44,644 bases of DNA from a virus (lineage: Duplodnaviria > Heunggongvirae > Uroviricota > Caudoviricetes), in the IMG/VR virus record IMGVR_UViG_2568526230_000009; one strand, written 5' to 3'. The notes beneath the pieces are model-generated. The model was not told the origin of the DNA, did not search any database, and was given only the letters and a program-made list of their open reading frames with translations. The position numbers and the translations under genes were made by a program. Within the stretch, counting starts at the first letter, position 1. Each line of letters opens with the position of its first letter. Positions 23,255-24,575 of this stretch are shown piece by piece.

Positions 23255-24575
23255 CTGTATATTTATGGGTCTTCCCCGATCATGGTGGGAAGACTCAGTA
23301 CGCCATATTCAGTTTCCCATAGTGGAACATAACTCCCAGTTTAAAGCGTTCCCGGTTTCGGTATCCCCTGGCCTTTATCCTCAGCAGTCTGATCTTGCTG
23401 TTCAGCGCCTCCGCATTTCCATTCGAGACGCGATGACGCATTGCATTCAGTATTCCGTATAACCGTTTTTTAATGGTTTTCGCTGCGTTTTTCATCATCG
23501 GCACATCACATTCAGACGCCAGCGATATCCACTGCAACCAGTCATTCCTGCGTTCTGTGCTCCAGGGGCGATCCCAGATATTTTTTGCCAGCTCTTTCAG
23601 TGTCCAGCACTGGCTTGTCTGTTGCATCTGTTCCCGCAACCACATCAGCTTTTCCTGCCGGGACTCAGTCATCCATTTGTCGCTGTACTGCCACAGGAAG
23701 CGGGTACCTTTGGCCTGACGACGACTTTCAACAGGGAGGTGCGGATGTTCATTCTGGCGGGTTTTATCAACCACTTCGCCCAGTTGCTTCGCCACATGGA
23801 AGCGATCGAAGGCGATTTTCTCGACCGCATTGGGTAAATGGATACGCGCTGCTCTTATATAGCCCGCATTCATGTCCATCGACAGTGTTTTGATGGCCAA
23901 CAACTGACTGTCAGTAAGCGAACGGAGATAGCTGGCAAGACTCTCTGTGCCACGATCATCGGTTAATGCCAGTGCCCGCCCGTCGCGATCAGATACCACG
24001 GTTATATACCTATGCCCTTTTTTAAAGGCGACTTCGTCTACATTCATATGACGCACTGATAAAGGCTTTTTAATCCGCGACAGGCCTCGCTTAACCGCGC
24101 GGGTCATGATGCCGTCAACGGCATTCCAGCTAAGTTTAAGTTGTTTTCTGACCGCATCAACGGTGCTGATTTTAAGCCATGAGAGCACGAACGATTCGAA
24201 CAGCAGAGTGTACCGACTGCCGGAACCTGCCCACGGTACAGGCAGAGTCTGGCAGCCATGCTCCGGGCACATAACGCGGGGAACATCGGCTTCTACTAAT
24301 GTCATGAACTGGCAGGTATCAAGGTGGCGCCATTTACGATGTCGGTGATCGTGAACAGAACAGGATTTCCTGCAGGTCGGACAGGTTAACTGAGTATTTT
24401 CAGCAATTCCGACTGTAACAGTAACGGAACCTGCATTTTCATCGAGGGTAAGGGATTTAACCTGCCATGGTGCAGTCAGGTTAAGGATATGGGCATAGAG
24501 GGATTTTTCGTCCATATAATTTCATTCTGAAGCTTACTTTAAACTGATATTATTATTTTTTGCACACTTTCTTAA
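23255..24575 (-). mobile_element. ISL3-family insertion sequence (ends approximate)
   Basis: Single transposase ORF; terminal inverted repeats could not be resolved by eye. Confidence 0.4.
23295..24515 (-). CDS. ISL3-family transposase
   Basis: 406 aa; N-terminal zinc-finger-like CPTCRKSCSVHDHRHRKWRHLDTC and overall ISL3 architecture. Confidence 0.7.
   Translation of the reverse strand: MDEKSLYAHILNLTAPWQVKSLTLDENAGSVTVTVGIAENTQLTCPTCRKSCSVHDHRHRKWRHLDTCQFMTLVEADVPRVMCPEHGCQTLPVPWAGSGSRYTLLFESFVLSWLKISTVDAVRKQLKLSWNAVDGIMTRAVKRGLSRIKKPLSVRHMNVDEVAFKKGHRYITVVSDRDGRALALTDDRGTESLASYLRSLTDSQLLAIKTLSMDMNAGYIRAARIHLPNAVEKIAFDRFHVAKQLGEVVDKTRQNEHPHLPVESRRQAKGTRFLWQYSDKWMTESRQEKLMWLREQMQQTSQCWTLKELAKNIWDRPWSTERRNDWLQWISLASECDVPMMKNAAKTIKKRLYGILNAMRHRVSNGNAEALNSKIRLLRIKARGYRNRERFKLGVMFHYGKLNMAY

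Follow-up and report, generated by a model that had tools for sequence, protein, structure and literature searches.

ISEc55 is the published name of the insertion sequence (IS) found in fimB of Escherichia coli sequence type 131 (ST131), clade C, and the relevant passages of the two papers concerned (PMC4850260, PMC7671891) treat it as a fimB disruption and mention neither a passenger gene nor a target preference. A preprint (bioRxiv 10.1101/2025.11.17.686825) describes a "clbS-like transposon", in which a clbS-like gene stands beside a single ISL3 transposase on ST131, ST69 and ST95 plasmids and chromosomes, and already puts forward the view that the two genes move together as a transposon and make cells resistant to colibactin. 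As far as its passages on the element go, this is apparently the same gene pair as ISEc55; they give no ends, duplication or target site, and the term fimB is absent from the preprint. The passages call the neighbours of the pair "otherwise unrelated", whereas the neighbours considered here share an SOS operator. For the relative ISKox3, transposition has been seen in the laboratory, leaving AT-rich 8-bp repeats (PMC12057282). Here we describe a copy of ISEc55 in a stretch of 44,644 nucleotides from a tailed virus (Caudoviricetes; IMG/VR record IMGVR_UViG_2568526230_000009), which in its full length is referred to below as the window.

ISKox3, ISCfr12 and ISEc53 are ISL3 elements common on IncX3 blaNDM plasmids. 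ISKox3 is 1,316 bp long and has no passenger, whereas ISEc55 spans 1,885 bp and carries one; the homology of ISKox3 and ISCfr12 to ISEc55 is limited to query positions 1-1249, comprising one inverted repeat and the transposase gene to its ATG. ISKox3 and ISEc55 are alike in the inverted repeat at the 3' end of the transposase gene, which is identical in the two, in their 8-bp duplication and in their target, CTGT-N8-ACAG. Neither ISEc55 nor its copy in fimB nor the passenger gene is new, and the locus in the window is itself an ordinary one, polymorphic in ST131 prophages. Our overall reading, which we consider very probably correct, is that a two-gene ISL3 element, known as ISEc55, transposed as a unit into an SOS operator, and that the same target rule holds across its clade. 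No description of SOS-operator targeting by ISL3 elements was found in the literature searched, where subscription journals were thinly covered and the silence is weak evidence of absence. To our knowledge, no IS has been reported to target the operators of a global repressor.

An ISL3 element that moved as a two-gene unit

ISEc55 occupies positions 23267..25151 of the window (1,885 bp), with both of its genes on the minus strand, as delimited by its inverted repeats, its target duplication and in-silico excision. Its layout, in order, is inverted repeat, 99 nt, clbS-like gene, 18 nt, transposase gene, 28 nt, inverted repeat. The terminal repeats, located by an inverted-repeat search and by reading of the nucleotides, lie at the 3' end of the transposase gene (23267..23289, GGGTCTTCCCCGATCATGGTGGG) and at the passenger-gene end (25129..25151, reverse complement GGGTCTTCCCCTGTTGTGGTGGG); each is 23 bp long, and 18/23 positions are identical between the two ends. 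The arms 23255-23289 and 25129-25163 form the longest inverted repeat of the region and enclose both the transposase and the ClbS-like genes. Directly outside the element stand two copies of ATATTTAT (23259..23266 and 25152..25159), a target-site duplication of 8 bp, AT-rich as in the ISL3 family, of which the empty allele has a single copy.

The transposase gene (23295..24515, minus strand) is an intact, uninterrupted open reading frame (ORF) of 406 amino acids (aa) with all three ISL3 transposase domains: DDE_Tnp_ISL3 (PF01610, 1.3e-58), HTH_Tnp_ISL3 (PF13542, 2.9e-12) and Zn_ribbon_ISL3 (PF14690, 3.3e-10), each of them exceeding its gathering score in Pfam. Its product is 90% identical to the ISKox3 transposase and is named "ISL3-like element ISEc53 family" by the Prokaryotic Genome Annotation Pipeline. 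The passenger gene (24534..25052, minus strand) lies 18 nt upstream of the transposase gene in the same orientation and encodes a ClbS-like/DUF1706 four-helix-bundle protein of 172 aa.

A first-pass annotation of this DNA had placed an ISL3-type insertion with an intact 406-aa transposase at 23255-24575, and had named terminal inverted repeats, an 8-bp target duplication and an IS-free allele as the things to look for, the absence of repeats or duplication speaking against an insertion. Insertion and transposase are confirmed, and repeats, duplication and an unbroken IS-free allele were all found. The limits require correction: the true ends are 23267 and 25151, and the right limit that had been given falls within the ClbS-like coding sequence.

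The empty junction, 401 nt long, was built in silico by deleting positions 23267-25159 and was searched against 5,426 complete E. coli genomes. It occurs 100% identical and unbroken in E. coli chromosomes; 415/5,426 genomes match it with at least 80% query coverage, 410 of these at 99% identity or more, and only 10 genomes carry the ISEc55-occupied junction. In a genome with the empty allele, the prophage genes on either side of the site stand next to each other, and both IS genes are missing there. Strain Ecol_AZ162 matches the window over 40.3 kb at 100% identity. Given the repeats, the duplication and the counts of empty and occupied alleles, the insertion is recent and polymorphic, a 1,885-bp unit with an 8-bp duplication that moved as a whole into a lambdoid-type prophage of ST131-like E. 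coli. Because the repeats enclose both genes, the empty allele lacks clbS-like and the same two-gene unit recurs at unrelated loci, the ClbS-like gene, which lies within the IS on the upstream side of the transposase gene, is its cargo.

In the reconstructed empty site, the sequence left of the element (ACCTGT, 23253..23258) and that right of it (ACAGTA, 25160..25165) come together around a single ATATTTAT as ACCTGTATATTTATACAGTA, that is, ACCTGT-ATATTTAT-ACAGTA. This site matches the CTGT-N8-ACAG core at 8/8 positions and the E. coli SOS-box consensus TACTGTATATATATACAGTA at 17/20, a near-perfect match by which it is a predicted LexA (SOS) operator; the IS has cut it exactly at the borders of the 8-bp spacer, the left copy of the duplication being that spacer. 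CTGT-N8-ACAG has a chance expectation of 0.47 over the whole window, and no intact copy is left anywhere in the window as it stands. A LexA-like box remade at either junction or hidden in the IS was also considered and rejected, the sole core match of at least 7/8 lying inside the transposase coding sequence and agreeing with the consensus at 9/20 positions overall.

The full 1,885-bp unit is present at 99.9-100% identity in 657 E. coli genomes and also on about 200 plasmids, and a 96-98% identical copy lies on a Klebsiella plasmid. The same two-gene unit occurs in another prophage, in strain TUM13064. On the pUTI89-like F plasmid pEC190759_2 (L127 4386-4420), the clbS-like IS splits the SOS box TACTGTATATACATACAGCA directly upstream of dinI-like and umuD genes, and the error-prone polymerase operon is therefore cut from its operator.

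The published fimB insertion affords the closest comparison. The unit in the window and the fimB copy of strain EC958 (ST131) are identical at 1884/1885 nt over 100% coverage, and they share the transposase accession (WP_000343765.1), the passenger and the inverted repeats. They differ in that the window copy sits in a prophage SOS operator instead of a coding sequence and has a clean 8-bp duplication, where the fimB insertion duplicated 5 bp only (ATATA; EC958, L001 1460-1540 and 3340-3420, against K-12 fimB, L002). An 8-bp duplication at fimB was tried and is not supported relative to K-12; a later loss of 3 bp or an unusual stagger would account for this. The single nucleotide difference, a plus-strand A for C at 24564, is private to the window copy in an alignment of six copies and, on the minus strand of the passenger gene, gives the substitution W163C.

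Insertion sites of the enterobacterial ISL3 clade

To examine insertion sites in general, genomes were scanned for the IS terminus alone (GGGTCTTCCCCNNTNNTGGTGGG), a query blind to the flanks, and the flanks were de-duplicated, leaving at least 113 unique flanks among the matches listed in genome_contigs and 38 in viral contigs (IMG/VR). Among the matches listed in genome_contigs, CTGT stands at -12..-9 in 56/76 ends of the enterobacterial type, with CTGG in 4 more, and in 0/37 ends with other inverted-repeat types, which come mostly from marine bacteria. The viral contigs show the CTGT-N8 flank at 33/36 ends of the enterobacterial type. Against a background for CTGT of 0.0038 per position, the binomial tails are about 1e-118 for the genomes (matches listed) and 1e-76 for the viral contigs. 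The half-site logo reads T-A-C-T-G-T followed by alternating A/T, which is the LexA consensus beyond CTGT. Fourteen elements have a perfect 8-bp duplication, and 12 of these lie in CTGT-N8-ACAG and 1 in CTGT-N8-CCAG.

Genes whose starts lie 14-37 nt beyond an IS end encode UmuD (several times), Cho, DinB (DNA polymerase IV), a QnrB-family protein, YdjM, YebG and SulA. The genes for UmuD, Cho, DNA polymerase IV, QnrB, YdjM, YebG and SulA are classical members of the LexA-regulated set. Transposase identity within the clade that targets SOS boxes goes down to about 69%. On the IncX3 plasmid pNDM_MGR194, ISKox3 lies in TACTGT-ATATGCAT-ACAGCT, upstream of an S24-peptidase (umuD-like) gene. In E. 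coli ECO21 (NZ_CP139887; L125 3151-4466), ISKox3 is found at the identical nucleotide of the same prophage SOS box that ISEc55 occupies in the window, and there too ATATTTAT is duplicated; a different element has hit this position independently. Relative to the SOS gene, no orientation bias is evident: counted crudely by inverted-repeat type, the orientations stand at about 25 to 23, and of five clbS-like copies 2 are co-directional with the SOS gene and 3 divergent from it. The enterobacterial ISL3 clade, comprising ISEc55, ISKox3 and their relatives, thus inserts between SOS half-sites with an 8-bp stagger, in either orientation, on chromosomes, plasmids and prophages.

Two further sets of ends were seen in these scans. 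For many IS copies in the IS-rich genomes of the symbiont Candidatus Symbiopectobacterium (L012, L023, L034, L055, L070, L085 and other loci), CTGT-N8 stands on one side of the IS and N8-ACAG on the other with unmatched 8-mers, which looks like recombination between IS copies in different SOS boxes. An ISKox3-like element in a perfect TACTGT-ATATATAT-ACAG box makes up a 1,658-bp contig assigned to Arthrobacter mobilis (L066) and likewise a 1,452-bp contig of a Chloroflexota metagenome-assembled genome (L080); the phyla are unrelated, and both contigs are most likely enterobacterial contamination of the assemblies.

Models for target choice and its consequences

Several transposons have symmetric or site-specific targets, among them Tn10/IS10 with its hotspot NGCTNAGCN, IS30 with palindromic hotspots, IS1397 and ISKpn1 in the palindromes of repetitive extragenic palindromic (REP) sequences and bacterial interspersed mosaic elements (BIME), and Tn7 at attTn7. 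The ISL3 clade resembles them in using a defined position in a short palindrome with a staggered cut centred on the dyad, and differs in that its motif is the operator of a global repressor. Since the motif is the LexA operator, insertions fall in promoters of the SOS regulon and of SOS-controlled modules of plasmids and prophages.

ISEc55 moves as a two-gene unit, and the middle of its 8-bp stagger falls on the dyad of the SOS box, as it does across the clade. On balance we lean towards a symmetric transposase complex that would read the CTGT/ACAG half-sites and the AT-rich spacer directly, much as the Tn10 and IS30 transposases read symmetric hotspots directly. This preference rests on the degenerate site used in fimB, on the hops of ISKox3 into capsule genes and on the marine relatives, which have no CTGT preference.

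A possible but doubtful alternative is capture guided by LexA, in which the transposase would bind operator-bound LexA or LexA-bent DNA, as Tn7 uses TnsD. The logo would suit such a model, as it gives the whole LexA consensus with the flanking TA and the alternating AT spacer included, and G is the second commonest fourth base (CTGG/CCAG), the usual natural variant in real LexA operators; nearly all sites, moreover, adjoin bona fide SOS genes. Real operators, however, are also the best genomic matches to the extended palindrome, and the logo therefore fits both models. In the crystal structure of LexA on its operator, the half-sites and some of the spacer lie under the bound dimer, which, going by this structure, would obstruct the transposase at the cut positions. 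The fimB and capsule-gene sites are used though they are unlikely LexA operators. In addition, among the matches listed, the marine relatives have CTGT at 0/22 ends although their hosts presumably use the same LexA motif, which points to a property of the transposase. The marine relatives chosen here as non-targeting controls have degraded transposase genes (151-154 aa). Sequence data cannot separate direct reading from LexA-guided capture.

As to what the insertion might do, the operator in the window would be destroyed. A promoter-like prophage site (TTAATA-16-TATAAT, 10/12; 25215..25242, minus strand), found by a consensus scan and also present in the empty allele, where it lies 50-90 nt upstream of the LexA box, points into the passenger end of the element. 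An upstream prophage promoter of this kind would transcribe clbS-like and the transposase gene free of LexA, and a 59-aa gene on the far side of the element, together with the genes after it, would lose its SOS-controlled promoter. Inside the IS, the scan found no sigma-70-like promoter upstream of clbS-like on the minus strand. A second candidate, ATGACA-17-TATAAA, overlaps the box in the empty allele; it was seen by eye, was not accepted by the scan and is not relied on here.

We regard as unlikely a more far-reaching version, in which this ISL3 clade would specialise in SOS operators, with LexA itself or the SOS state of the cell needed for targeting, and would draw on captured SOS promoters to express its transposase and cargo such as the colibactin-resistance gene, the SOS regulon (umuDC, dinB, sulA, qnrB) being rewired and the SOS-triggered induction switch of prophages, that of the window included, disarmed.

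A number of observations tell against the general reading of ISEc55 as a unit that entered an SOS operator under a clade-wide rule. LexA binding at the prophage site is a prediction, and the fimB insertion lies within coding sequence in a degenerate box, GTGT-ATATATAT-CCAT, with its 5-bp duplication. About a fifth of the enterobacterial-type ends among the matches listed have no CTG at the expected place, and many of the genome_contigs ends come from two IS-rich Symbiopectobacterium genomes, though from different sites. Genomic insertion sites are survivors of selection, which could enrich intergenic sites but not create exact phasing. Promoter-like sites are no commoner in the consensus scan than in shuffled sequence, and the promoter assignments are consensus matches. 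The W163C change might impair the passenger protein. Finally, ISKox3 enters capsule genes under selection (PMC12057282). In view of the degenerate fimB site and of ISKox3 in capsule genes, the specificity for SOS operators is strong but not absolute.

Selection, together with the fact that several ends come from the same genomes, would also be the ground for taking the CTGT-N8-ACAG pattern as an artefact of selection, of shared ancestry of a few insertions or of a motif that belongs to the element, and this we hold to be hardly credible. Among the de-duplicated flanks both spacers and neighbour genes differ, with no collapse to a few orthologous loci; since the empty allele has both CTGT and ACAG, neither belongs to the IS. 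Phasing to the single nucleotide is beyond what selection produces, two different elements reached the same position independently, and the binomial tails given above are minute. A plain transposase-only IS of ~1.3 kb beside a resident prophage clbS-like gene, perhaps clipping its 3' end or changing its expression, would accord with the 18 nt between the transposase ORF and the ClbS-like stop codon and with the transposase-only build of close relatives such as ISKox3, but it is refuted by an empty allele (415 genomes) that has neither gene, by repeats and an 8-bp duplication that flank the 1,885-bp unit with no inverted repeat or element end detected between the two genes (near 24520-24575), by the occurrence of the two-gene unit at unrelated loci and by a ClbS-like ORF of full length.

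Under the target rule, the target of a transposase is at the same time the operator of a global repressor, a simple case that lends itself to testing. The rule predicts the landing sites, namely umuDC/imp operons, dinB, sulA and qnrB, as well as the SOS switches that plasmids and prophages carry, and provides a route to deregulated SOS-controlled mutagenesis, quinolone-resistance and prophage-induction genes. As SOS boxes are common on plasmids and phages, such targeting may explain why these elements spread well. The clade is widespread, with ISKox3 on global IncX3 blaNDM plasmids and ISEc55 in ST131 and on pUTI89-like F plasmids.

The passenger gene and the prophage context

The ClbS-like ORF matches Pfam DUF1706 (PF08020, 3.9e-53) over profile positions 1-166 of 166, and its product is identical to PDB 5COF at 171/172 residues. 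It aligns with ClbS itself (6ANR) at 6.7e-56, with 54% identity over 165 residues, and Tyr55 of ClbS, which we take to be the catalytic residue, is conserved and aligned within "LVSYL". Residue 163 is W in the other E. coli copies and in PDB 5COF, L in ClbS and C in the window copy, and the change at 24564 is unrelated to any IS boundary. Silpe et al. found protection against colibactin with all the ClbS-like proteins that they tested, at 25-80% identity (PMC8907063), and the passenger would be expected to protect likewise; the ClbS-like protein of the window and its W163C variant are not among the proteins named in that study.

The first-pass annotation had the transposase abutting the 3' end of a neighbouring ClbS-like gene and suggested that the IS may have altered its C-terminus or its expression. 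The proximity holds, at 18 nt from the stop codon, and the gene is element cargo instead of a resident neighbour. An altered C-terminus does not agree with the full-length ORF, nor with the spacing of 18 nt between the 3' end of clbS-like and the transposase gene, which is constant in every copy aligned. Expression of clbS-like may well be changed by the insertion site, through a prophage promoter reading into the IS, and not by the abutting transposase. In the window, the insertion would also put a colibactin-resistance homologue downstream of what was once an SOS promoter, and the prophage concerned is one that colibactin might be expected to induce.

The 59-aa prophage gene that formerly followed the LexA box (23053..23232, minus strand) was called as an ORF, is a coding sequence in both the empty and the occupied alleles, and belongs to phrog_340 (1.6e-20). 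The box ended 20 nt before its ATG, and the two are now parted by the 1.9-kb IS. It is followed by genes for DUF1367, YbcO and the antiterminator Q. Neither the 59-aa protein nor that of the neighbouring 225-aa gene has a Pfam match, and PHROGs assigned both to families of unknown function only. The LexA box before the 59-aa gene was the only one in the prophage, and the repressor candidate, an HTH_3 protein of 130 aa (37336-37728, plus strand), lacks an S24 peptidase domain.

LexA-controlled antirepressor modules are known from other prophages, such as Tum of coliphage 186 and the Gifsy antirepressors. The window likewise has a small gene right behind a LexA box and a repressor candidate without S24, and the LexA-boxed 59-aa gene could be an induction switch of the antirepressor type; in comparison with Tum and the Gifsy antirepressors, such a role for the phrog_340 protein is a conjecture from gene layout. 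The major capsid gene (12347-13381, minus strand) has an internal stop at about codon 128 and is annotated as a pseudogene in an identical RefSeq record. Because this gene is broken, the prophage is probably defective.

Within the same inverted-repeat frame, the passenger varies among relatives of the element, from ClbS-like to a FosA-like protein of the glyoxalase family, an SH3-domain protein and a 293-aa protein. The FosA-like passenger (133 aa) belongs to a Scandinavium relative (L032 2779-4539), in which it lies downstream of the transposase gene. Relatives in Rahnella (L123 2750-4433, L027 and L008) carry a 116-aa double-SH3 passenger, and the 293-aa passenger, which has no Pfam match, is found in a further relative (L079 4679-6893).

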